A stretch of 64,000 bases of DNA from the sequence record MH791411.1, one strand, 5' to 3'. The number at the start of each line of letters is the position of its first letter. Position 1 is the stretch's first letter. Both the position numbers and the translations under genes were made by a program. The notes beneath the pieces were generated by a model. The model had not been told where the DNA came from. It made no database searches and worked only from the letters and a program-made list of their open reading frames with translations. Origin of the DNA: Escherichia phage Ecwhy_1. Below are positions 24,421 to 64,000 of this stretch, piece by piece.

Positions 24421-24639
24421 TTATTTGGAATTATACAAGCAATACAAGTATACCATAGGAGCAAAATGTTCGGTATCAACTAAGTATATTAACTGGGTGT
24501 CATATATACCGTACAAATCTCGAAATTTATCTCTGTACAGCAACAATGACTTATTGTTGTGTGGGTCAACCCAGTACTTTAAGTCATTGTAGTGCAACGT
24601 GTTATTACGGTAACCTGATAATATTTGTTTTTTAGCCAA
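24421..24639 (-). CDS. hypothetical small protein (non-ATG start?)
   Basis: 72-aa ORF whose first codon appears to be TTG with no clear RBS. Confidence 0.3.
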   Translation of the reverse strand: MAKKQILSGYRNNTLHYNDLKYWVDPHNNKSLLLYRDKFRDLYGIYDTQLIYLVDTEHFAPMVYLYCLYNSK

Positions 24640-25009
24640 CTTTTTTACAATTACTTAGTAAATGCATGATGGCATCAGCGGTAAATGGTCCCAGTACTAA
24701 AACTTCTTCTCCATTACCGAAGATACTCAATGGTACAGATTGTTGTCCTGCTAGATATTCGATTTGTTCTAATTCGAAAATGTCATCAGCAGCATAAACA
24801 ACCTGTTCCATTTCATTATCTTTAATCCATGACTGCCAATGTTCTTTAAACTGCTTCGCTTCGTATTCCAGTACATAGTTAGGTGATTCTGGATTGTACT
24901 GATGTAGCATTGTCATACCAGCCATAACCAGTTCTTTTGGTGATGGAGTAGAATCTTTCAGTACTACGATAGCTTGGATAGTTTTAACTTTAACGTTTTG
25001 AGCAGCCAT
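24632..25009 (-). CDS. hypothetical protein
   Basis: 125-aa ORF. Confidence 0.45.
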   Translation of the reverse strand: MAAQNVKVKTIQAIVVLKDSTPSPKELVMAGMTMLHQYNPESPNYVLEYEAKQFKEHWQSWIKDNEMEQVVYAADDIFELEQIEYLAGQQSVPLSIFGNGEEVLVLGPFTADAIMHLLSNCKKVG

Positions 25010-25021
25010 TAGATACCTCTA

Positions 25022-25330
25022 TTATAGAATGATTTTGTTATCAGGAACAATCAGTGCTGGTTTTTCTTCGATAGCCTTGATTGCTTCAACATAAGCTTCA
25101 ACTAGTGCAGGGTTTGCATCGCTGATGCTAATGATGTTGGATTTATAAAAAATAACGCCTTTTTCAGAACTAATGAATTCTAGATAATCACGTAGAATGA
25201 TTTCACCTTGTTCGTCAGTACCTAGCTGTGCTGGGTAGTTAACTACTACTGCTTCTGGTGCATCATTTTGTAGAATTGCTAGTACTGGGCCAACGCTGTT
25301 GATGTTTAGTAGTTTAACGGTCATAGTCAT
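25022..25330 (-). CDS. hypothetical protein
   Basis: Track start 25339 is TTG; the ATG at 25330 has an AAGGA RBS. Confidence 0.45.
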   Translation of the reverse strand: MTMTVKLLNINSVGPVLAILQNDAPEAVVVNYPAQLGTDEQGEIILRDYLEFISSEKGVIFYKSNIISISDANPALVEAYVEAIKAIEEKPALIVPDNKIIL

Positions 25331-25349
25331 TTTTGTCAAGTCCTTTTGT

Positions 25350-25829
25350 TTATTTTAGAATGTATAAGTGTTTTTCTGCATTAACCAGTCTGTGGTCAAT
25401 GATTTCTTTGATAACGTTCCAGTTACCACCGCCTAAATCGGCTCCAATTTTCGGGAAGTGTACATGGATCTCTTGTGGTTCATTTTTAATGAATTCATTC
25501 ATCGAGTTAAATGCAAGGTCAATCGCATCATAACTTACATACTTCTTACCATCATTACCATAATACTCTTGTGTAATGCAGTTTGCAATAATTAAGTTAT
25601 TATTTGGTGCTGCATAGACAACTTCACCCAATTTCAAACCATTCTGATTGGTATAACGTGTATGATACACATCATATGCCAATTGGTGACGCTTTCTTAA
25701 TTCTTTTGCAAAACCAGAACCCATCTTACCCTGAGCGTTACAACCATGAGCGATAATATGTAATGCAGTTTGATCAGTAGTAACAGTACTGAATAAATCA
25801 AACAGATTACCACAATGTTCATGTATCAT
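25350..25829 (-). CDS. macro-domain protein (ADP-ribose binding/processing)
   Basis: 159 aa; IIAHGCNAQGKMGSGFAKEL and HVHFPKIGADLGGGNW match the macro-domain Gly-rich ADP-ribose-binding loops; GGAGAA RBS. Confidence 0.7.
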   Translation of the reverse strand: MIHEHCGNLFDLFSTVTTDQTALHIIAHGCNAQGKMGSGFAKELRKRHQLAYDVYHTRYTNQNGLKLGEVVYAAPNNNLIIANCITQEYYGNDGKKYVSYDAIDLAFNSMNEFIKNEPQEIHVHFPKIGADLGGGNWNVIKEIIDHRLVNAEKHLYILK

Positions 25830-25839
25830 TATATTCTCC

Positions 25840-25869
25840 GAAAAGAAAGGACTCTGTAATCAGAGTCCT
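25840..25869 (-). terminator. rho-independent terminator
   Basis: Hairpin aggactctg-taat-cagagtcct (25848-25869); on the minus strand followed by a U-rich tract. Confidence 0.65.
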
Positions 25870-25880
25870 TAATTTATATT

Positions 25881-26138
25881 TTATTCTTCTTCACCGAATC
25901 GAATTTTTTTCAATTCTTTTCGTTGTTTGCGAGCAATGGTACTTTTGTGAAGTCTATTACCACGTTTTGTGTCTTTCGTAATGTACCATGAATCTTCTGG
26001 TGCATTATAATCACAATAACCATCTTCTGTAATCGTCCCTAAGAAAGCAGACTTTTTAGGAATGGATGTTTGAGCTTTAGCAGCGAATTGGCCTTTTGCT
26101 AATTGTTCACGAAAACTGAGCATAATAGTATCTCCCAA
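25881..26138 (-). CDS. hypothetical small basic protein
   Basis: 85-aa ORF, Lys/Arg-rich C-terminus. Confidence 0.45.
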   Translation of the reverse strand: MGDTIMLSFREQLAKGQFAAKAQTSIPKKSAFLGTITEDGYCDYNAPEDSWYITKDTKRGNRLHKSTIARKQRKELKKIRFGEEE

Positions 26139-26168
26139 ATTGTTACGAAGAACTTGTGTTCTTCATTA

Positions 26169-26411
26169 TTATTTAGGGTTGCTCGAAACCTCTACTGAAG
26201 CGATGAATGCCAAAATATCATCTTTACTGAAAGCTTCAATAATATAAGCAACCGCTTTATCGTACTGTTCTTTCTTAGTAGTGTATTCTTTCATTTTGTG
26301 AATTTTACGTTGTGCTTTAACTTTTGCAGCTTCCATATCAGGCATTTTAAATTCAACACCCAATGTGTCAGCTAAATGTTTTGCACGAGATGATACTTTA
26401 TCAATATTCAT
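26169..26411 (-). CDS. hypothetical small protein
   Basis: 80-aa ORF. Confidence 0.45.
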   Translation of the reverse strand: MNIDKVSSRAKHLADTLGVEFKMPDMEAAKVKAQRKIHKMKEYTTKKEQYDKAVAYIIEAFSKDDILAFIASVEVSSNPK

Positions 26412-26659
26412 TAATTCCAGCGACCTTCTTTAAGACCTTCAACGAAACCAGTACAGCCACCTGGAACGTAAACATCGTTTACGAAAATTTGTGGAACCTG
26501 TCGTACTGGCTCACCACATAGTTCAGATAGTTTAGCACCATCAATACCAGCGGTAACAATATCGATAAACTCCATATCAAATTTGTTATTTTCACATACT
26601 GCTTTAGCAGTGTCGCAGAATTTACAACCAGTAGTGCGACCATAAATTTTAACTTTCAT
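26411..26659 (-). CDS. glutaredoxin/thioredoxin-like protein (NrdC-like)
   Basis: 82 aa; CxxC active site (GCKFC) near the N-terminus and a C-terminal GG motif, typical small glutaredoxin layout. Confidence 0.7.
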   Translation of the reverse strand: MKVKIYGRTTGCKFCDTAKAVCENNKFDMEFIDIVTAGIDGAKLSELCGEPVRQVPQIFVNDVYVPGGCTGFVEGLKEGRWN

Positions 26660-27059
26660 TTCTTTTCCCTTTATTTCGTTGAAACATTGTAACAGCCTTT
26701 ATTATACTGTTACACATTCGTTCAGTCAAATACTTTTGACAATCTAGTACATCAATGTACATGAACTTATCCAATTCTGGGTGACTTCTACCATATCTGT
26801 TTGTGTAAGTACTTTTACACTCCAACTCTTCTGGTATAGGCTTATCTTTGGCTGTATAGAAAAATAAAACTAAACGTTTCCCCTTTCTATACGATACATC
26901 ACCAAGAAACAGAAGATCATCTTCATCGATTTCATATCCTGTCTCTTCGTAGCATTCACGTACAGCAGCCTCTTTAAATGTTTCTGTACCTTCAGTTTTA
27001 CCTTTAGGTAAGTCCCAGTGATTCTGTCCGTGTTGTATGCCCGATAAGTATCTGACCAT
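26649..27059 (-). CDS. Nudix hydrolase
   Basis: Complete Nudix box GKTEGTETFKEAAVRECYEETGY (Gx5Ex7REUxEExGU); track start 27062 is GTG, ATG at 27059. Confidence 0.75.
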   Translation of the reverse strand: MVRYLSGIQHGQNHWDLPKGKTEGTETFKEAAVRECYEETGYEIDEDDLLFLGDVSYRKGKRLVLFFYTAKDKPIPEELECKSTYTNRYGRSHPELDKFMYIDVLDCQKYLTERMCNSIIKAVTMFQRNKGKRNES

Positions 27060-27168
27060 CACGATAAAATATTATACCACAGCTATAACGCATAATCTTA
27101 TCTCTTTATCATCAAGTGATGTTCAGATACTAGTAATTATATCAGAAGATGTTAACTTGTCCCAGCTT

Positions 27169-28284
27169 TTAGAACATTTGCTTGATTGCTTCAATACGCA
27201 ATTCAGCAACAAAATCACGAATCTCCGATGTTTGGAGTTCACCATCTTTCACTAACTGCTGAATATCAGGTAATTCAACATCAGTATAACGATCATAAAC
27301 TTTAATAATCAAATCTTCAAGTTCAGAATCAATTTCTTTGTTCAAAATGAAGTTTTCCAGTACTTTGTAAAGGAAATCTTCACCACCATTGTTTTTGATA
27401 TTCATATCCAGTAAGATTTGTCCCATTTCAACTGGGGTCTTCTTACGGAAGGTTTTAATATCTTCACGGAAACGCTTGATGTAATTACTAAACTTAACGT
27501 ACTTAACTGGAACCTTAATGGAACCGTTAAGTACTGAATCATTATTTACTTCTTCATTTTCAAGAAGTACTGTCCATAAGAAATATGGTTTATATTCTTC
27601 TGTACAATTTGCAGCGATAGAATCAATTAATTCCAGACGTTTCTTGGTAACTGGAACTGTAGTAAATGCCTTTTCGTAATAACCAAATTGTACCAGAGTT
27701 TTGATAAACTTGGAAGGGTTTTCTTCAGAAAGTGCTTTTTCGAATTCAACAAAAACACGATCTGGAACTAGATGGTCTAGTTCACCAGTACTAACCATAT
27801 CTTTACACATTGTCATAGTATCATCATGGATTGTAAAGTCGGAGTAACGCGTAGCGAAACGGGCCAAACGTAGAACACGCAATGGATCTTCTTTAAAGTG
27901 TTCTGATACATGACGAAGTACTTTGTTCTTGATATCAGCTTTCCCGCCATAAGGGTCGATGTGAATCTGGAGTACTGGATCATATGCAATACTATTGATT
28001 GTGAGATCACGACGATATAGATCTTGTTCTAGTGTCACACCTTTTGTATTCACTTCGAAGCCACCATATCCAGTACCAGTTTTACGCTCAGTACGGGCTA
28101 ATGCGTGTTCATTACCTTCTGGACTTAGATATACAGGGAAATCCTTACCTACTTGCTTGTATCCAATACTTTGCAAGTATTTAATATCGGATTCGGTAGC
28201 ACCGACAATAACATAATCTTTGTCTTTTGCACGGATACCCATTAAACGGTCACGAACGTAGCCACCAACCAAATACTTTTTCAT
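27169..28284 (-). CDS. tRNA nucleotidyltransferase (CCA-adding enzyme / poly(A) polymerase family)
   Basis: 371 aa; N-terminal GGYVRDRLMG and DKDYVIVGAT match the class II CCA-adding/PAP head domain. Confidence 0.7.
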   Translation of the reverse strand: MKKYLVGGYVRDRLMGIRAKDKDYVIVGATESDIKYLQSIGYKQVGKDFPVYLSPEGNEHALARTERKTGTGYGGFEVNTKGVTLEQDLYRRDLTINSIAYDPVLQIHIDPYGGKADIKNKVLRHVSEHFKEDPLRVLRLARFATRYSDFTIHDDTMTMCKDMVSTGELDHLVPDRVFVEFEKALSEENPSKFIKTLVQFGYYEKAFTTVPVTKKRLELIDSIAANCTEEYKPYFLWTVLLENEEVNNDSVLNGSIKVPVKYVKFSNYIKRFREDIKTFRKKTPVEMGQILLDMNIKNNGGEDFLYKVLENFILNKEIDSELEDLIIKVYDRYTDVELPDIQQLVKDGELQTSEIRDFVAELRIEAIKQMF

Positions 28285-57146: not shown

Positions 57147-57391
57147 TGTGCATCCTTTGGAATAGTGTTAAGGCGTGTACGGTTTACAATCTTCCTGCAC
57201 ATGAGATTAAGATCTTGCCCATGACGCATCTCATGGCAAGCATACAATGTACCATCATAGTTAAGTTTAGTCAAATTCTGGCGAATGAACTCTGCATCAG
57301 CCTCCTGAACTTTAGGTGCACAGCCACAGAGAGTAATGGACACAAATATTGTTAATGTAATGAATATATTTTTCATGATATTTTTTCTCAT
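57143..57391 (-). CDS. putative small lipoprotein
   Basis: 82 aa; N-terminal hydrophobic signal ending ITLCGC (lipobox-like). Confidence 0.4.
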   Translation of the reverse strand: MRKNIMKNIFITLTIFVSITLCGCAPKVQEADAEFIRQNLTKLNYDGTLYACHEMRHGQDLNLMCRKIVNRTRLNTIPKDAQ

Positions 57392-58359
57392 TTTGGGCTA
57401 TAACCACTTTTAATTTTAGAAATTACTTTCTTCTCGAAGAACTTACGTGCTTCTTCAATAGTTTTGAATTCTTCACCATCTGTAGTACTGGTTTTACCAA
57501 TAGCACCATACTCAATAATTACTTCACACACTGGAGCATTCAATTCAATATTATAGAATTTGTTCGAAGAACCGTGAACATATTCCAAATGTACATTATC
57601 AGGAATGTTCTGCACATAATCATAGTTCTTGAAGATAATATCAATCATATTTTCTTCACCGCGATCAGGAAATAGTTCAGTATTATTCAGTACTAAACGC
57701 TGTGCAGCACGGAACATATCAAAATATTGTTCACCTTTTTTCAGTTCTTTTGTATCAGAACAGAAATGACCATAGTATTCTACATAATCATTCCAAGGAT
57801 AAATTCCTTCATCAGCAGTTTCAAAAGCGTAAGTTTCATCTTGTGGAACTTTAAAACCACGAGTTTTTGGATGAGAAATTAAGCACAGTGAAATATTATG
57901 ACCGATATCTGAATCATCAGTAATACTACCACCAACCATATGAACAACATTTTTAATACGTTCAAAATCTACATCTTCAATTTCATGATACATTAAATGT
58001 TCTTCAATATTACTTACTAGTAATGAATTACCATTTCCTGCATCGAATTCAAAAATGAAAAGTTCTACACAATCTTCTTCTTTCATTTCAATAGTATCAC
58101 TGAGTTTAATATACTCATTTTTTACTTGTTCAATATTTTCATGAGAACCAAAACTATAACGAGAACTGATATAACTACTACCATCCAACCATCCCATATC
58201 CCAAGGTTCTTCTGACATGTATTCGGTGCTATAGAAATCAGTCAAATCATCTCTCTGAGTACAAACCGTAAGAGAACGAACATTATTAAGACCTTGAACT
58301 TCAAGATTCAGTACTGTAGTGTTGCCGATTTTTTGTTCAGAAATAATTTTAGTTTTCAT
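57388..58359 (-). CDS. hypothetical protein with C-terminal WGR-like domain
   Basis: 323 aa; C-terminal ~80 aa (SSNKFYNIELNAPVCEVIIEYGAIGKTSTTDGEEFKTIEEARKFFEKKVISKIKSGY) follows the WGR pattern, with YGAIG in place of WGRIG. Confidence 0.45.
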   Translation of the reverse strand: MKTKIISEQKIGNTTVLNLEVQGLNNVRSLTVCTQRDDLTDFYSTEYMSEEPWDMGWLDGSSYISSRYSFGSHENIEQVKNEYIKLSDTIEMKEEDCVELFIFEFDAGNGNSLLVSNIEEHLMYHEIEDVDFERIKNVVHMVGGSITDDSDIGHNISLCLISHPKTRGFKVPQDETYAFETADEGIYPWNDYVEYYGHFCSDTKELKKGEQYFDMFRAAQRLVLNNTELFPDRGEENMIDIIFKNYDYVQNIPDNVHLEYVHGSSNKFYNIELNAPVCEVIIEYGAIGKTSTTDGEEFKTIEEARKFFEKKVISKIKSGYSPK

Positions 58360-58490: not shown

Positions 58491-59138
58491 CTACTTTTTT
58501 GATTTATGTAATGCAATTTGTACTCGCGTAATGAACTCACGCTCTACTTCATCTGAATTAACACCATCATATTGTGTTTTGAATAGTTCCATAGCTTTGA
58601 TAGCCATCTGAACTGAAAGATCAGCAATACTTTCAGTACTGGTACTTTCAAATACATTTTTGAGGCTTAGTTCACCATCATCAATACATTCTTTTGGTTT
58701 GTTGATTTCTGGTACTTGGATGTATCGCAATGCTTTGTATTCTGCTTTGGTCAGATTCCCAGTCCATCTTGGTTCATTGAACAAGTCATGCATTGTAATG
58801 CCAGCTTCACCCATTAGGTGTACTAACTCTTCATTTCGGCGAATATGCTTTTCTTCATCTTTGAAATTTTTGTAAGTGTAAGCACAACGCATGATAGCCA
58901 AACGTACTTCACCACTTTTAGTAATTGTATACGTATGAATTGCATTATCGTAGTCACTTTCCCATTGTTGACCCGCATATTCGTACCAAAGGTCATTTGT
59001 CTCCCAACGGAGCATTTTACCTTCTAGTAGCTCGTCAATCATTTTAGCCATGTTACCATGATATTCACAACTGGTAATATTAAATCCACCATTGTACTTT
59101 GCAAGGTACAGAATCTTTTCTTGTGATACATTTTTCAT
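58491..59138 (-). CDS. hypothetical protein
   Basis: 215-aa ORF with ATG start. Confidence 0.5.
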   Translation of the reverse strand: MKNVSQEKILYLAKYNGGFNITSCEYHGNMAKMIDELLEGKMLRWETNDLWYEYAGQQWESDYDNAIHTYTITKSGEVRLAIMRCAYTYKNFKDEEKHIRRNEELVHLMGEAGITMHDLFNEPRWTGNLTKAEYKALRYIQVPEINKPKECIDDGELSLKNVFESTSTESIADLSVQMAIKAMELFKTQYDGVNSDEVEREFITRVQIALHKSKK

Positions 59139-59476
59139 TACATGTAATCCTTGATGTATTTTAGCAGTTTAGATTTCTCTTCGGTACTTAATGATTTCTT
59201 GTTCATCAAGTGTTTCATTTCTTGACGTTCAATTTCTTCACATCTTTTAGATTCAGCTTCAATTCGTGTATGGTATTCTTCGTCAGTTTCTTCTCTGGTC
59301 CAAATTACATTGTATCCATCGAAACCACCGTAACCACCGTCTGGTGAAAGACTAATGTATCCCTTGTACTCTGAACGGTACTTATTAAGAGTGTCAATAA
59401 AGGTATCAATGCCACACTGTTCAATTTCAATATAACCAATCACGACAGCAACTTCAATTTTGTTCATAAAGTTCAC
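59138..59476 (-). CDS. hypothetical protein
   Basis: 112-aa ORF. Confidence 0.45.
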   Translation of the reverse strand: MNFMNKIEVAVVIGYIEIEQCGIDTFIDTLNKYRSEYKGYISLSPDGGYGGFDGYNVIWTREETDEEYHTRIEAESKRCEEIERQEMKHLMNKKSLSTEEKSKLLKYIKDYM

Positions 59477-59494
59477 CTATAAAAATAGGGAGCA

Positions 59495-60052
59495 TTAGCT
59501 CCCTTTGTATTGATGTTTACGTTTAGTACTGTATTTCCAGCCAGTACTGTGTCTTGTTCTGATATCATCCCAATACGATGGTAGTGAACGCATCTTACGT
59601 CTTCCACGTATATCCGGTTCCCCCTCATCCTTCAGTACTGCACAAGCCATACGACGCTCTTGTTGGGTCTTAGGACGTTTGTATCTGGAGTGGTTATGTT
59701 TGTACATATACGAACGCTTGTGTCGCCATTCAGTGTCACGAGCATTTCGTTTATGATCCCAGTACTCATTATAGAGTATCATGTATTCACCCATAAGTAA
59801 ATCAGGAGATACAAGTAATCCTTTTTCAGTACAAAGATAATAACCTACGAACTTTTCTGGATACATTTCGTAATAGAAACGGTTCTTCCAAAATGTTTCA
59901 CGATTCTTTTTGTTGAATTCAGCTAAATCGAATTTCATCTTACTGTGGAAACGGTCTATACCGTCATGTTCCGCAATGTACTCTAACAGATTATCAATAA
60001 TCTCAACTTTACCTGAATCATGGTACAACGTAAATGTTTGGTCAAAAAACAT
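59495..60052 (-). CDS. hypothetical protein with basic C-terminal tail
   Basis: 185-aa ORF; Arg/Lys/His-rich C-terminal third. Confidence 0.45.
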   Translation of the reverse strand: MFFDQTFTLYHDSGKVEIIDNLLEYIAEHDGIDRFHSKMKFDLAEFNKKNRETFWKNRFYYEMYPEKFVGYYLCTEKGLLVSPDLLMGEYMILYNEYWDHKRNARDTEWRHKRSYMYKHNHSRYKRPKTQQERRMACAVLKDEGEPDIRGRRKMRSLPSYWDDIRTRHSTGWKYSTKRKHQYKGS

Positions 60053-60140
60053 ATATTTCTCCTTTAAGTTAAACTAACCTAATGGAATGTCATTCTTCCT
60101 TTACTACATGTTCTCATGGTTTAATCCTTTTGTCAATATC

Positions 60141-60173
60141 TAGAAAGAAAAAATCCCTGCCAAAAGACAGGGA
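60141..60173 (-). terminator. rho-independent terminator
   Basis: Hairpin atccctg-ccaaaaga-cagggat (60152-60173); on the minus strand followed by ttttttctttct. Confidence 0.6.
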
Positions 60174-60268
60174 TGAAAAACTGAAATAACACATGGAGTT
60201 CTTTTTAAATTAATAAAAAGTATTATTATTCTTATGAAAGTATTTATCATGAACTCCAGTTTATTGCT

Positions 60269-60466
60269 TCAAATGCCCCAATAACCTTTTTGTGCTACTA
60301 TCTCACGGTATTGAGCACGAGTTAGAACACCTTGTTTACGTAGAGCTTGAAGACCTGATAGGGTTTCTGCTTTACGTAGTTCGTAATTGCGTTGTTCTTT
60401 AGATTGAATAACTTTAACTTTCTTAACTTTTGCTACTGGTTCTTTTTTCTTAGGTTGCTTTGCCAT
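60269..60466 (-). CDS. small basic protein (possible nucleic-acid-binding)
   Basis: 65 aa; Lys-rich N-terminus; AAGGAG RBS. Confidence 0.5.
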   Translation of the reverse strand: MAKQPKKKEPVAKVKKVKVIQSKEQRNYELRKAETLSGLQALRKQGVLTRAQYREIVAQKGYWGI

Positions 60467-60532
60467 GAGTATTTCTCCTTTGTTGTTAACAATATTATTA
60501 TATCATGTATGGGACGAATGTCCCATACATTA

Positions 60533-61972
60533 TTACATATTTTCTTCAGCAAATTCTGCCAGTGGTGAACGAACGACACCTTCTAGTTCGATTACACGAC
60601 AACCGTCCCAGTTCTTGAACTTCTCGGTAACATAAGTTAGACCGCTGTTAACTGGACTAATGAATTTAGAGTCAATCTGGCTCAAGTTGCCCATAATAAC
60701 CACTTTACAGTTCATTCCTGCACGAGTCAGGATTGTTTTAGCCTGAGCAGGAGTAATGTTCTGGAATTCATCCACTACTAGGATAGTGTTTGTGAAAGAA
60801 CGCCCACGAACGAAGTTTAGTGCTTTGAACTGGATAACATTACGTTTCATGATTTCTTCGATACTGCCTTGTGGGTTAGCATCATCTTTGTGTAGGAATT
60901 CCAACGCATCAATGGCAGCTCCACAGAATGGAATCACCTTCTCTGCCTCAGAACCTGGCAAGAAACCAATGTCTTCGAATTGGGAATCTTGTGTTTTGGA
61001 GAAGATGATACGGTCGTATTTTTTCTTCTCTAGTACTAGCTCCAGTGCAGTAGCAATGGTGATCAATGTTTTACCAGTACCTGCGGAACCCAACAGTACT
61101 GTTAGATGAACATCAGGATCTAGGATACTGTTGATTGCTAGTGCTTGTTGAATATTCTTAGCCTTAATATCCCACACTTTAGCACGTAGAGCAACAGATT
61201 GTCCAATATCTTGGAATACAAGAATATCTTCTGGTGTTAAAGTACCATCATCTTCTTCAATTGCAGATTGGCCTTCGTACACAAATAGAACATCAGCATT
61301 ATCATATAGGTAATCACCGATGCAAATATTTTGTGGCATGATATGTTCAATCAAGCTTTTTGGAATGTAGTGATACAAACGGCGACCAACTTGTTCAGAT
61401 TGGATAGACACATCAGTTAGATTGCTATACACATCCCAAAAATCTAGGTCGAGGTGATGTTGACCAATGTGAATCAAATCACTATCACCAATCACGATAT
61501 CATGACGATAATCTTGAACTTCCACCCCGTAGCTTAGAGCCTTGATACGCATATTGATATCACGGGTAACCAGTACTGAATCAGTTGCTAATGCTACTAA
61601 AATGATTTTATCATCTGGTACTGTGCTTTTTAGAAGAGTTTGAACTTTCTCTTCGTTACCAGAAGTACGAATTAGTGCTTCAGCTTCTTCGCTTGTAATA
61701 ACAAACAATTTGCTTTCAGGACTCATATTAGTATGAACATCAGCAATATTAACACCAGTACTACTAATTTCTTCATGTGATGCATCAGAAAGGATAGCTT
61801 CAATGTTACGGATTGCAACACGAGCATCACGGGAAACATCCACATTACGACTTTTGATTGAATCCAATTCTTCAAGTACTGTGAACGGTAGAATGATAGC
61901 TGCTCCATCAAAAGCAATGGTAGCATTTGGATCAGATAGTAGTACGTTTGTGTCAATTGTATATTTTTTCAT
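60533..61972 (-). CDS. phoH: PhoH-like ATPase with N-terminal PIN-like domain
   Basis: 479 aa; N-terminal DTNVLL PIN-like start; C-terminal Walker A GSAGTGKT and Walker B VVDEFQN. Confidence 0.85.
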   Translation of the reverse strand: MKKYTIDTNVLLSDPNATIAFDGAAIILPFTVLEELDSIKSRNVDVSRDARVAIRNIEAILSDASHEEISSTGVNIADVHTNMSPESKLFVITSEEAEALIRTSGNEEKVQTLLKSTVPDDKIILVALATDSVLVTRDINMRIKALSYGVEVQDYRHDIVIGDSDLIHIGQHHLDLDFWDVYSNLTDVSIQSEQVGRRLYHYIPKSLIEHIMPQNICIGDYLYDNADVLFVYEGQSAIEEDDGTLTPEDILVFQDIGQSVALRAKVWDIKAKNIQQALAINSILDPDVHLTVLLGSAGTGKTLITIATALELVLEKKKYDRIIFSKTQDSQFEDIGFLPGSEAEKVIPFCGAAIDALEFLHKDDANPQGSIEEIMKRNVIQFKALNFVRGRSFTNTILVVDEFQNITPAQAKTILTRAGMNCKVVIMGNLSQIDSKFISPVNSGLTYVTEKFKNWDGCRVIELEGVVRSPLAEFAEENM

Positions 61973-62033
61973 AAAACATCCTTGAGTTATGAGTACATCC
62001 TTGTACTCGACTAATGGTTAGTGACTCGGAATA

Positions 62034-62336
62034 TTACATGCTCGGTTCGTATTCAACATAACATCTTGAACCACGAGCCTTTTCCTCCCAGCATTCCTGG
62101 TAAACTAGTTGACCAATTGATACTGGATCTCTTGATAACCCATTACGAACTTCACCAGTACTGGTTTTATAAGTAAATGAGCATTTATTTTCATTACATT
62201 GACCTAATCCTGTTACAGTCGCTGTATTGTAATGAATATTATAACGTTTAGTGTTCTCATGATATGAACTGAACCACAGAACACCTATACCTAATAGCGT
62301 TGTGCAAATAAGACTCTTGATATGTGTTGAAATCAT
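62034..62336 (-). CDS. hypothetical secreted/membrane-anchored small protein
   Basis: 100 aa; N-terminal hydrophobic segment LICTTLLGIGVLWF; several Cys. Confidence 0.45.
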   Translation of the reverse strand: MISTHIKSLICTTLLGIGVLWFSSYHENTKRYNIHYNTATVTGLGQCNENKCSFTYKTSTGEVRNGLSRDPVSIGQLVYQECWEEKARGSRCYVEYEPSM

Positions 62337-62653
62337 AGTGCATTAAATCCATTAGTTAAGTAAGTTTCAATATTAACTTTCCCTACTGGATTACTACTAT
62401 GTACATAGTATTTAAATGGTTCTTTAATATTATGCTCAAACATATAATCAATTAGAAATTTGGCAAAAGTGTATCCAGTTTTCTCATCTGTACTCAAGTC
62501 ACCCAAGTCATGGTCAAATGAGACAAATGCTGGAATTCCATTTTTGATTACGTATTCACATGCACTTTCGTAGTCACGACACAATACCATCTCTTGGTCA
62601 GGATAATATTTTTGATAATCACGAATATCATCCAAGAACATTGAGTACGACAT
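62333..62653 (-). CDS. hypothetical protein (receiver-like fold?)
   Basis: 106 aa; conserved-looking FLDDIR, FDHDLG and HSSNPVG motifs; family not confidently recognised. Confidence 0.45.
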   Translation of the reverse strand: MSYSMFLDDIRDYQKYYPDQEMVLCRDYESACEYVIKNGIPAFVSFDHDLGDLSTDEKTGYTFAKFLIDYMFEHNIKEPFKYYVHSSNPVGKVNIETYLTNGFNAL

Positions 62654-62662
62654 TTTAAACTC

Positions 62663-63214
62663 CTATAGATAGCTGATTAGTAAGTTTTCTTTTTGTACAA
62701 GATACTCTAATTCTTGTTTCGCAGTTCCGATGAAGTTCTGTGTCATAAGATTATTATATCCTGCTTCTCGATTTTGTCCCTTCGAATAACGAGAGATGTG
62801 ACATAAATTTACACCAGCCACCTCTGCACTAGCATGTTTGCCATATGCATAATTATCACGAAGTTTTTTAAGTTCAGCATAAGTCATTTCATAACTATAG
62901 CTATGTGAGTGACCCTCTGGAAACAATTCAAGTGATTTTAATGGAGACAGGCGACTTTTGTCAATGATATAGTTCATTTCTTCTTGTACTTCACGTTGTA
63001 ACGCATCTTCTAATGACTTATCAGTACTTTCAACTGTTCCACCACATGCACCCAACAATCCATCCCAACGCACTTGTAGGAGTACTAAGTTAACCACTGG
63101 AATATCATTTAGTTCATAACCAGAGTATGGGGTACATTCTTTTGCATAAAAGAAACAGAATACAAAATTTGCACGTTTCCCCAGTTGTCCCAGTGGTACT
63201 TCAGCTTTACTCAT
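62663..63214 (-). CDS. Nudix-like hydrolase (divergent Nudix box)
   Basis: 183 aa; GGTVESTDKSLEDALQREVQEEMNY approximates the Nudix box (REVQEE core) with altered spacing; ATG overlaps the Sir2-like stop (ATGA). Confidence 0.5.
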   Translation of the reverse strand: MSKAEVPLGQLGKRANFVFCFFYAKECTPYSGYELNDIPVVNLVLLQVRWDGLLGACGGTVESTDKSLEDALQREVQEEMNYIIDKSRLSPLKSLELFPEGHSHSYSYEMTYAELKKLRDNYAYGKHASAEVAGVNLCHISRYSKGQNREAGYNNLMTQNFIGTAKQELEYLVQKENLLISYL

Positions 63215-63963
63215 CGCATTCGTTCCTTAATTATAGTTTCAACCTGTGGAATTGCTTTCGTCGCAGGTTTGATGACCTTCTCATTAAAAAGAAAATCATT
63301 ATCATTTTTTCGGATGTTAACATTTACACTATAGCATGGAAGTGCACCAGCTAGTCTGGACCATACCAGTACTGTATCACTACTTCCAATAACTACAACT
63401 GTATCATTTTCTGTGAGACTTTTCAACACTTCATTTCGTTCTTCATAAATGGGGAGACGTACCCCATCAACGTAGCGATGATACTCACCAATCATCACTA
63501 CATTTGGTTTTGCAAAAACATCAGCTTTAGGGATATATGGTTCATAACCACAATTAATGACATTGTAATCATCAGTATTAATAGAAAAGTTCTCAATTAC
63601 TTCACATAAATTGCCGTGTAGTTTGAGTTCGGTTCCACCAATTCTAGTATATAGATCATCCATATTAGAAGTCATGTGTAAAAAACAATCACCATACAAA
63701 TCTTCTAATGATTTAATAAAGTAATGCATTTCATTAGGATGACATTCACCTAATTTTACACGCAATGTATTATAAAATGAATGAACTATATGATACTTAG
63801 AACTAAGTCGTGCAATGTTACAAACATCATTAATTTTGAAATTGTCCCACAACCCATCATCAAAGCGGAATGGTTCCATCCCGCTCTCAACTGAAAGACC
63901 TGCCCCTGAAATTATAAGTAATCTTTTGTTCCCAGCATTTTGTATAAATTTATCTGATATCAC
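63211..63963 (-). CDS. Sir2-family (sirtuin-like) NAD+-dependent protein
   Basis: 250 aa; ISGAGLSVESGMEPFR, TSNMDDLY, LHG and VVVIGSSDTV match sirtuin NAD-binding motifs; no CxxC zinc ribbon seen; GTG start at 63963 preceded by AAGGAG. Confidence 0.65.
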   Translation of the reverse strand: MISDKFIQNAGNKRLLIISGAGLSVESGMEPFRFDDGLWDNFKINDVCNIARLSSKYHIVHSFYNTLRVKLGECHPNEMHYFIKSLEDLYGDCFLHMTSNMDDLYTRIGGTELKLHGNLCEVIENFSINTDDYNVINCGYEPYIPKADVFAKPNVVMIGEYHRYVDGVRLPIYEERNEVLKSLTENDTVVVIGSSDTVLVWSRLAGALPCYSVNVNIRKNDNDFLFNEKVIKPATKAIPQVETIIKERMR

Positions 63964-64000
63964 ATTTACTCCTTATATAAAAAGTATCAAGTTTAATACT

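Follow-up and report, generated by a model that had tools for sequence, protein, structure and literature searches.

The window analysed here is a stretch of 64,000 nucleotides from Escherichia phage Ecwhy_1 (MH791411.1), and the subject of this work is a sirtuin-centred block of five genes at its positions 60533-63963. A first reading made from the letters alone (here called the sequence-only reading) had placed five open reading frames (ORFs) in this block, and all of them are present on the minus strand:

63211..63963, minus strand: zinc-ribbon-less sirtuin (Sir2 family, CobB-like), 250 amino acids (aa), by Pfam SIR2
62663..63214, minus strand: NUDT16-like Nudix hydrolase, 183 aa, by Pfam Nudt16-like and NUDIX
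62333..62653, minus strand: cREC (cyclic-phosphate-processing receiver-like) domain protein, 106 aa, by Pfam PF20274
62034..62336, minus strand: small membrane-anchored protein with four invariant Cys, 100 aa, by phrog_14661
60533..61972, minus strand: PIN-PhoH fusion (PhoH2-type RNA helicase and endoribonuclease), 479 aa, by Pfam PIN_4 and PhoH

Genome-wide tests were carried out on Escherichia jumbo phage fEgEco12 (PP777464.1, 374,733 bp), with the complete genome assembled from pieces. The window is 100% identical to it, and window coordinate w corresponds to coordinate 149917-w of the fEgEco12 record (reverse strand of PP777464.1). The sirtuin, the cREC gene and the NUDT16-like gene are each present as a single copy in the fEgEco12 genome.

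The product of the first gene, described before as Sir2-like, is a true sirtuin by Pfam SIR2, by PDB sequence match and by predicted structure. It matched Pfam SIR2 (PF02146) at 1.4e-19 (71.1 bits, cut-off 24) and phrog_2162 at 1e-73, and the closest PDB sequence was E. coli CobB (2e-21). An AlphaFold (AF2) model with 24 homologues as alignment input had a pLDDT of 92.1, and CobB was also its top Foldseek match (TM 0.76/0.84); CobB, archaeal Sir2 and SIRT5 together gave TM values of 0.7-0.84. The protein shares the catalytic motifs GAGxS, TxNxD and HG with E. coli CobB and human SIRT5, which are its best sequence and structure matches. Little or no variation is seen among 54 distinct phage sirtuins at residues G20/G22/S27, N100, D102, D103, H116 and G117: the catalytic Asn/Asp (N100, D102), D103 and the His-Gly pair (H116-G117) are found in 54/54, and the GAGxS motif (G20-A-G22-x-S24) is kept in 52-53/54. 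The sirtuin is very likely active on nicotinamide adenine dinucleotide (NAD+).

Four features separate the phage sirtuin from CobB and SIRT5, namely the loss of the Cys4 ribbon, the change of the YxxR Arg to Leu, an NCBIfam score far under the CobB equivalog threshold, and a context of RNA-end enzymes. The absence of the zinc-ribbon cysteines, already noticed in the sequence-only reading, was borne out, as the segment H116-G159 holds only C120 and C138, neither of which is conserved. This loss is common to the whole clade, which includes sirtuins of jumbo, rV5-like and T5-like enterobacterial phages, and a conserved (D/N)(I/V)GY hairpin stands in place of the ribbon, while roughly one in four of the more distantly related phage sirtuins keep CxxC...CxxC. 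The class-III YxxR motif has its Arg in 42/54 phage sirtuins; in the window's clade this position is Leu, and an Arg follows at the next residue (Y64-N-T-L67-R68). In public annotations the protein is named NAD-dependent deacylase. A defence-type SIR2 NADase (ThsA, DSR, SIR2-HerA, SIR2-APAZ) was rejected: PADLOC models gave zero matches to the sirtuin at E<=0.01, and all 50 structural matches listed were deacylase-type sirtuins, with none of the defence type among them.

The Nudix-like call for the second gene was confirmed, and the protein could be assigned to the NUDT16/X29 family. It matched Pfam Nudt16-like (PF22327) at 1.4e-18 (67.8 bits, cut-off 27) and NUDIX at 2.4e-7, and its closest PDB sequences were human NUDT16 (9e-12) and Xenopus X29, with which it shares the PF22327 family and the extended box GG.V....SLED.L.RE..EE. 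The Nudix box is GGTVESTDKSLEDALQREVQEE, in which RE..EE is kept in orthologues and REVQEE aligns with RELREE of NUDT16. Different from NUDT16, this is a phage protein with about 25-30% identity to it, and it is sometimes fused with cREC. NUDT16 cuts the pyrophosphate of macromolecule-linked ADP-ribose (PMC8883491).

For the 106-aa protein the sequence-only reading had pointed out the motifs FLDDIR, FDHDLG and HSSNPVG and had given no family. In a 41-sequence alignment the columns without variation coincide exactly with these motifs, and the protein matched cREC_REC (PF20274) at 1.9e-23. It is receiver-like, with a conserved Asp ending strands 1 and 3 and an Asn after strand 4; a PDB sequence search found no solved structure for cREC. 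The family was defined in a 2021 jumbo-phage paper of the Iyer et al. group (PMC7824862), and is called experimentally uncharacterised by Iyer et al. (PMC9503650). It numbers over 7,000 clusters at the 50% identity level, and its predicted function is that of a phosphodiesterase of cyclic phosphates. A profile search of 1.84 billion representatives was made for informative cREC fusions; almost all matches were stand-alone, and the long ones carried no extra Pfam domain, with one exception. In one metagenomic cREC homologue (P0286), an HNH/NUMOD homing-endonuclease module splits the coding sequence, with the cREC halves on both sides of it. No PADLOC defence or anti-defence family matched Sir2, cREC or the membrane protein.

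The 100-aa protein encoded at 62034..62336 matched phrog_14661 'membrane protein' at 1.2e-38. A hydrophobic segment at its N-terminus forms a membrane anchor, four cysteines are invariant, and the protein is likely periplasmic and disulfide-bonded. It occupies the same slot, between cREC and PIN-PhoH, in every Rak2-like jumbo-phage locus examined. A probable periplasmic protein is thus found amid a cassette of cytoplasmic enzymes.

The last gene had been read as phoH. The PhoH domain is there (residues 269-473, 8.5e-45), but a PIN half was missed (PIN_4, residues 4-156, 4.3e-20; both Pfam), and the gene at 60533..61972 encodes a PIN-PhoH helicase-nuclease of the PhoH2 type. The PIN acidic residues D7, E34/E35/D37, D115/D116 and D133 and the Walker A (GSAGTGKT) and Walker B (VDEFQN) motifs are invariant in orthologues, and this is the most conserved gene in the block. 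The best NCBIfam model was 'RNA 5'-3' helicase PhoH2' (1.7e-45), with a score of 155.8 bits, far below the cut-off of 680. The two-domain PIN-PhoH architecture, the intact PIN acidic residues and the Walker motifs are shared with mycobacterial PhoH2. The difference is that the present protein is phage-encoded and lies in an NAD+/RNA cassette, without sign of a toxin-antitoxin role. A lead from PMC5259590, according to which the Rak2 PhoH is virion-associated, found no confirmation in the main text of the Rak2 paper.

A comparison of synteny in related phages had been proposed in the sequence-only reading, and the gene order is indeed kept in related jumbo phages. Of the 59 IMG/VR loci that carry sirtuin relatives, seven are complete jumbo-phage loci anchored on Sir2, and all seven (7/7) keep the genes in the order Sir2 > Nudix > cREC > membrane protein > PIN-PhoH on a single strand; their Sir2 identities are 46-90%. 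The same five-gene order was found in 12/12 Rak2-like loci of a second, cREC-anchored sample, and it is identical in the Eneladusvirus relatives. In Yersinia phage fHe-Yen9-03 the Nudix and cREC domains are fused in one protein of 302 aa. Nearly all genes of the window are on the minus strand, with tight spacing throughout, so the shared orientation alone is poor evidence of linkage; it is the conserved gene order and the gene fusion that carry the evidence.

The surroundings of the block are different in fEgEco12 and in its relatives. An Acb1-family 2H phosphoesterase gene lies just upstream of Sir2 in 10/12 Rak2-like relatives, and Nampt lies a few kb further upstream in 11/12, seven of which have NadM as well. 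In fEgEco12, neither Nampt nor NadM precedes the cassette, and homologues of Nampt, NadM and 2H were not found anywhere in the assembled genome by phmmer (the 2H query was from a Yersinia phage). PBECO4-type phages were absent among the Nampt matches listed. The PBECO4/fEgEco12 lineage seems either to have lost NAD+ salvage or never to have acquired it. Because fEgEco12 keeps the cassette in a genome without any of the three genes, the cassette works without Nampt, NadM and 2H.

Links with RNA repair recur in several phage lineages. The rV5-like phages carry RNA ligase 1 > cREC > Sir2 of the zinc-less clade, close to genes for an AAA_33 kinase and a metallophosphoesterase; across the other phage lineages, a polynucleotide-kinase-like kinase is among the neighbours of this clade. 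In T5-like Shigella phage SSP1, Sir2 lies directly before an overlapping gene for a HAD_SAK_2 'Swiss-army-knife RNA repair' phosphatase (7.5e-20), and PhoH is 3.5 kb from the sirtuin. In the cREC-anchored diverse set of 68 unrelated non-Rak2 phage loci, with neighbours counted within 6 kb, an RNA ligase was near cREC at 25 loci (37%, a raw count without a random-gene baseline) and a Pnkp-like kinase at 20 loci, and neither a sirtuin nor a NUDT16-like gene was present at any of them (0/68). On three independently fetched contigs cREC is immediately upstream of an RNA ligase. A homologue of the macro domain encoded elsewhere in the window lies within 6 kb of cREC at 6/68 loci, and one of these adjoins an RlaP RNA-repair nucleotidyltransferase. 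The fEgEco12 genome itself encodes a T4-type Rnl1 (RNA_lig_T4_1 6e-14, T4_Rnl1_C 1.7e-16) and a Pnkp (HAD_PNKP 5.8e-43); both genes lie 15-18 kb upstream of Sir2 and are co-directional with the cassette. Other neighbours, namely Nampt, glycosyl- and sulfotransferases and an amidoligase, were seen for zinc-retaining phage sirtuins in a small sample. The comparative context therefore supports an RNA link of the block. A NAD+-economy context for cREC also exists, because an unrelated phage contig of 114 kb (locus L115, 4884..9185) has the order PhoH > cREC > phosphoribosyl pyrophosphate (PRPP) synthetase > macro > Nampt.

Some genes in these regions are annotated differently from what we found. 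In the SSP1 locus (L007, 4998..7136), the annotated second 'Sir2' proves to be the HAD_SAK_2 phosphatase, and two tandem DUF7415 proteins follow. At 68297..71194 of the fEgEco12 record, which is beyond the window, g182, annotated 'hypothetical', is the T4-type RNA ligase 1, and g186, annotated 'polynucleotide 5', is a full Pnkp with kinase and HAD phosphatase. The same Rnl1/Pnkp region has also two metallophosphoesterases, a PTH2-like hydrolase and a MazG-like pyrophosphatase.

A system of this kind has been described before in silico. The type 1 sirtuin-centred, predicted NAD+-dependent RNA-repair neighbourhood of jumbo phages has Serratia phage BF as its prototype (Iyer, Burroughs, Anantharaman & Aravind, Viruses 2022, PMC9503650 section 3.7.3), and rV5-type and SP15/T5-type configurations are given in the same paper. 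It was proposed there that the sirtuin removes 2'-phosphates like KptA/Tpt1, and that 2H, cREC or Nudix proteins resolve cyclic phosphates or degrade ADP-ribose cyclic phosphate. The block has in common with the published type 1 neighbourhood a sirtuin of the phage clade linked to Nudix, cREC and a PIN endoribonuclease; it differs in that fEgEco12 has no 2H and that Nudix and cREC are separate genes. The small membrane protein, the PhoH ATPase half and the NUDT16-like nature of the Nudix are without mention in PMC9503650, and the fEgEco12 genome paper does not mention the cassette genes. The locus adds one more member to a known system that is purely predicted, and its version is a reduced one that lacks 2H and NAD+ salvage. 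As the system is already described in silico, the value of the locus is in testability and not in discovery.

Our tentative reading, held with somewhat less than even confidence, is that the block represents, in jumbo phages, a system for RNA-end processing that is centred on the sirtuin and consumes NAD+; for the broader statement that the cassette acts on RNA, we consider the balance to be even. The substrate and every catalytic step given below are what we infer from the gene identities, the intact active sites, the gene order, the fusion and the recurrent RNA-repair linkage. The sirtuin would move ADP-ribose from NAD+ onto a phosphate at a damaged RNA end, the likeliest target being the 2'-phosphate that remains once a 2',3'-cyclic phosphate has been opened. 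The conserved His would then activate the ribose 2''-OH, and the phosphate would depart from the RNA as ADP-ribose 1'',2''-cyclic phosphate, leaving a 2'-OH, so that the step would be the Tpt1/KptA reaction on a sirtuin scaffold. When sirtuins deacylate, C1' of NAD+ is first attacked by the acyl oxygen; the ribose 2'-OH, activated by the catalytic His, then attacks the resulting adduct. By analogy, a phosphate oxygen as nucleophile, followed by attack of the 2''-OH on phosphorus, is chemically plausible. The cREC protein, with its receiver fold and Asp/His pocket, would open cyclic phosphates on the RNA end or on the by-product, and the NUDT16-like Nudix would cut the pyrophosphate of ADP-ribose, free or RNA-attached. 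PIN-PhoH2 would unwind and trim the RNA substrate, and for sealing the phage would rely on its T4-type Rnl1 and Pnkp.

The proposed chemistry is shared with the pathway Tpt1/KptA > Cpd1 2H > Poa1p, and a Poa1p-like macro domain is present in the window. The folds are different, with a sirtuin Rossmann fold against the ADP-ribosyltransferase (ART) fold of Tpt1/KptA and a receiver fold of cREC against 2H. The likeness to Tpt1/KptA is thus functional and proposed only, and no cassette protein matched PF01885 in Pfam. That the sirtuin itself performs a Tpt1-like step, an idea that leans on this analogy, is rather doubtful. We would put in the same doubtful range the more far-reaching idea that the zinc-less sirtuin is an enzyme of nucleic acid and not of protein. 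The sirtuin would then be a second, non-ART solution of the Tpt1 type that ADP-ribosylates RNA terminal phosphates, cREC would be a receiver-fold cyclic phosphodiesterase, and the Nudix would act on RNA-linked ADP-ribose. The block with PIN-PhoH2 would in this case serve RNA-end healing and quality control, backing Rnl1/Pnkp against host ribotoxins.

Several observations speak against RNA-end processing by the block. By sequence and by fold, the sirtuin is nearest to the genuine protein deacylases CobB and SIRT5, and the YxxR Arg is replaced by Leu in its clade. The 2H gene found before Sir2 in most relatives is missing from fEgEco12, and where it is present the match of its product is to anti-CBASS Acb1 proteins (2.6e-17) rather than to an RNA cyclic phosphodiesterase of a dedicated kind. 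The RNA-end model assigns no role to the conserved membrane protein, the frequency of RNA ligases near cREC is the raw count mentioned above, and no experimental work on the phage sirtuins of this clade or on cREC proteins was found in the literature. T4-type Pnkp itself removes 2',3'-cyclic, 3'- and 2'-phosphates, so a separate remover of 2'-phosphates is not obviously needed. PIN nucleases yield 3'-OH/5'-P ends and not cyclic phosphates, and for this reason PhoH2 fits poorly in a cyclic-phosphate pathway.

The same genes could be explained in other ways. The sirtuin might be an ordinary CobB-like lysine deacylase or protein ADP-ribosyltransferase by which proteins of the host or of the phage are remodelled, with Nudix, cREC and macro proteins clearing O-acyl-ADP-ribose and PhoH2 as an unrelated neighbour. 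The top matches to CobB and SIRT5 (2e-21; TM 0.76-0.84), the invariance of all deacylase catalytic residues and the public annotation as NAD-dependent deacylase agree with this, and both Nudix enzymes and macro domains are known to consume O-acyl-ADP-ribose (PMC9503650 section 3.4.1). However, the NCBIfam equivalog of the CobB type scored far under its cut-off (89.5 bits versus 318), the zinc ribbon, which is part of the canonical small domain, and the YxxR Arg are lost in the clade, and it would be left unexplained why the sirtuin clade stands beside different RNA-end enzymes in three phage lineages and why cREC follows RNA ligases where the sirtuin is absent. We consider this explanation unlikely. 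Independent auxiliary genes that are chance neighbours in a long co-directional array, with no functional unit at all, would be matched with a window that is almost entirely minus-strand and tightly spaced everywhere, and no promoter or terminator bounds exactly these genes. Such a view can hardly be kept, as the order is strictly conserved down to 46% Sir2 identity, Nudix and cREC are fused in one lineage, and the adjacency of sirtuin and cREC and of cREC and PhoH recurs in unrelated phages; its probability seems minimal to us.

Two further explanations concern NAD+ economy and RNA decay. In an anti-defence island of NAD+ economy, Nudix and cREC would destroy immune signals of the host that are NAD+-derived or cyclic nucleotides, or toxic ADP-ribose phosphates, while the sirtuin would tune the NAD+/ADP-ribose pools. 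Iyer et al. see phage Nudix, macro and cREC proteins mainly as countering soluble ADP-ribose derivatives (PMC9503650 section 3.7.4), and such a role would agree with Nampt upstream (11/12, often with NadM) and the adjoining Acb1-family 2H (10/12) in related loci, as well as with the contig carrying PhoH, cREC, PRPP synthetase, macro and Nampt. The cassette is nevertheless kept in fEgEco12 without Nampt, NadM and 2H, against NAD+ depletion an NAD+ consumer encoded by the phage would be counter-productive, neither PADLOC nor Pfam matches the cassette with a known anti-defence family, and the linkage of cREC and of the sirtuin clade with RNA ligase is left unexplained, which makes this role improbable in our judgement. 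Decapping and decay at the RNA 5' end is still less probable. The Nudix would strip NAD or other nucleotide caps or triphosphates, PhoH2 would load at the 5' end and unwind 5'>3', PIN would cleave, and the sirtuin would act on NAD-capped RNA. That the Nudix belongs specifically to the NUDT16/X29 RNA-decapping family, that PhoH2 is the most conserved gene and that its best NCBIfam model is named RNA 5'-3' helicase PhoH2 would suit such a pathway, but use of NAD-capped RNA by the sirtuin is without support, cREC would have no role, and rV5-like and T5-like phages have the sirtuin without Nudix and without PIN-PhoH.

The sequence-only reading had put the block in a frame of NAD+ and ADP-ribose chemistry, which holds, with an intact sirtuin beside a NUDT16-like Nudix and a macro domain elsewhere in the window. 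Its two biological proposals, ADP-ribosylation-based host takeover and a counter-measure to NAD+-depleting defences, are not the best-supported roles, and it had missed the RNA side. For host takeover no ART was found, and a WGR domain alone is a nucleic-acid-binding module. The counter-measure is weakened because the phage has no NAD+ salvage genes: fEgEco12 is without Nampt, NadM or 2H, and the sole NAD+ enzyme of the cassette is a consumer.

If RNA-end processing by the block is true, sirtuins would gain a class of nucleic-acid substrates, the widespread cREC family would have its first assigned activity, and phage RNA repair would have a NAD+-dependent branch tied to host ribotoxin defences. 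The phage fEgEco12 and its PBECO4-like relatives would be a clean test bed for this, with E. coli hosts, the cassette kept, and no adjoining NAD+ salvage or 2H.

Overlapping stop and start codons had been claimed along the block. They are found at two of the four junctions (ATGA, Sir2/Nudix and cREC/membrane protein) and not at the other two. The Nudix-cREC junction has a spacer of 9 nt, with a ribosome-binding site (RBS) that spans the Nudix stop codon, and the start codon of Sir2 is GTG, five bases 3' of AAGGAG. The features around phoH are:

61973..62033, minus strand: spacer before phoH, 61 nt, which holds the RBS (sequence read directly)
60269..60466, minus strand: basic ORF, 65 aa, between the block and the hairpin (ORF list)
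60153..60174, minus strand: first terminator-like hairpin 3' of the block, a 9-bp stem and then a T-run (terminator scan)

In the 61-nt spacer the 9-mer CAAGGATGT occurs in two copies 21 nt apart, the second of which overlaps the phoH RBS. The doubled CAAGGATGT 5' of phoH may be a regulatory or translational element; the scan gave neither promoter-like nor terminator-like sites there. From the start of Sir2 to the stop of phoH the scan found zero terminator-like sites, and its 25 promoter-like sites were no enrichment over shuffled sequences (19.9±4.5), so the transcription unit cannot be delimited. An Rfam scan of 59000..64000 gave two sub-threshold chance matches only, a repeat search gave nothing beyond short two-copy matches, and a tRNA search found zero tRNA genes in the window.

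The sequence-only reading had also named genes outside the block. The WGR-like domain placed at 57388..58359 is a WGR domain (1.3e-10), but it spans only residues 256-322 of the 323-aa protein. As a sign of ADP-ribosylation it was rejected, since only the last 67 residues of the protein belong to it and the protein showed no detectable ART domain. The approximately 250 N-terminal residues match no detectable family.

A macro domain at 25350..25829 is real: the Pfam match was weak (E 0.003, below cut-off), and PDB sequence matches support it, namely BT1257 (1.3e-15), the Streptomyces macrodomain 5E3B (2e-10) and the yeast ADP-ribose-1''-phosphate phosphatase Poa1p (4e-4). The protein also matched PADLOC DarG at 3.4e-9. 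The second Nudix that had been read nearby is present at 26649..27062 (7.9e-12) and is MutT/RppH-like. Both genes belong to a cluster of RNA/tRNA maintenance on the minus strand at 24632..28284, in which the following were also found:

27169..28284, minus strand: CCA-adding tRNA nucleotidyltransferase (domain search)
26411..26659, minus strand: glutaredoxin-like ORF, 82 aa
25350..25829, minus strand: the macro domain protein (PDB sequence matches), a candidate partner for clean-up of ADP-ribose phosphates, with a putative linkage to the block
24632..25009, minus strand: ORF annotated as aminoacyl-tRNA hydrolase, with no Pfam match

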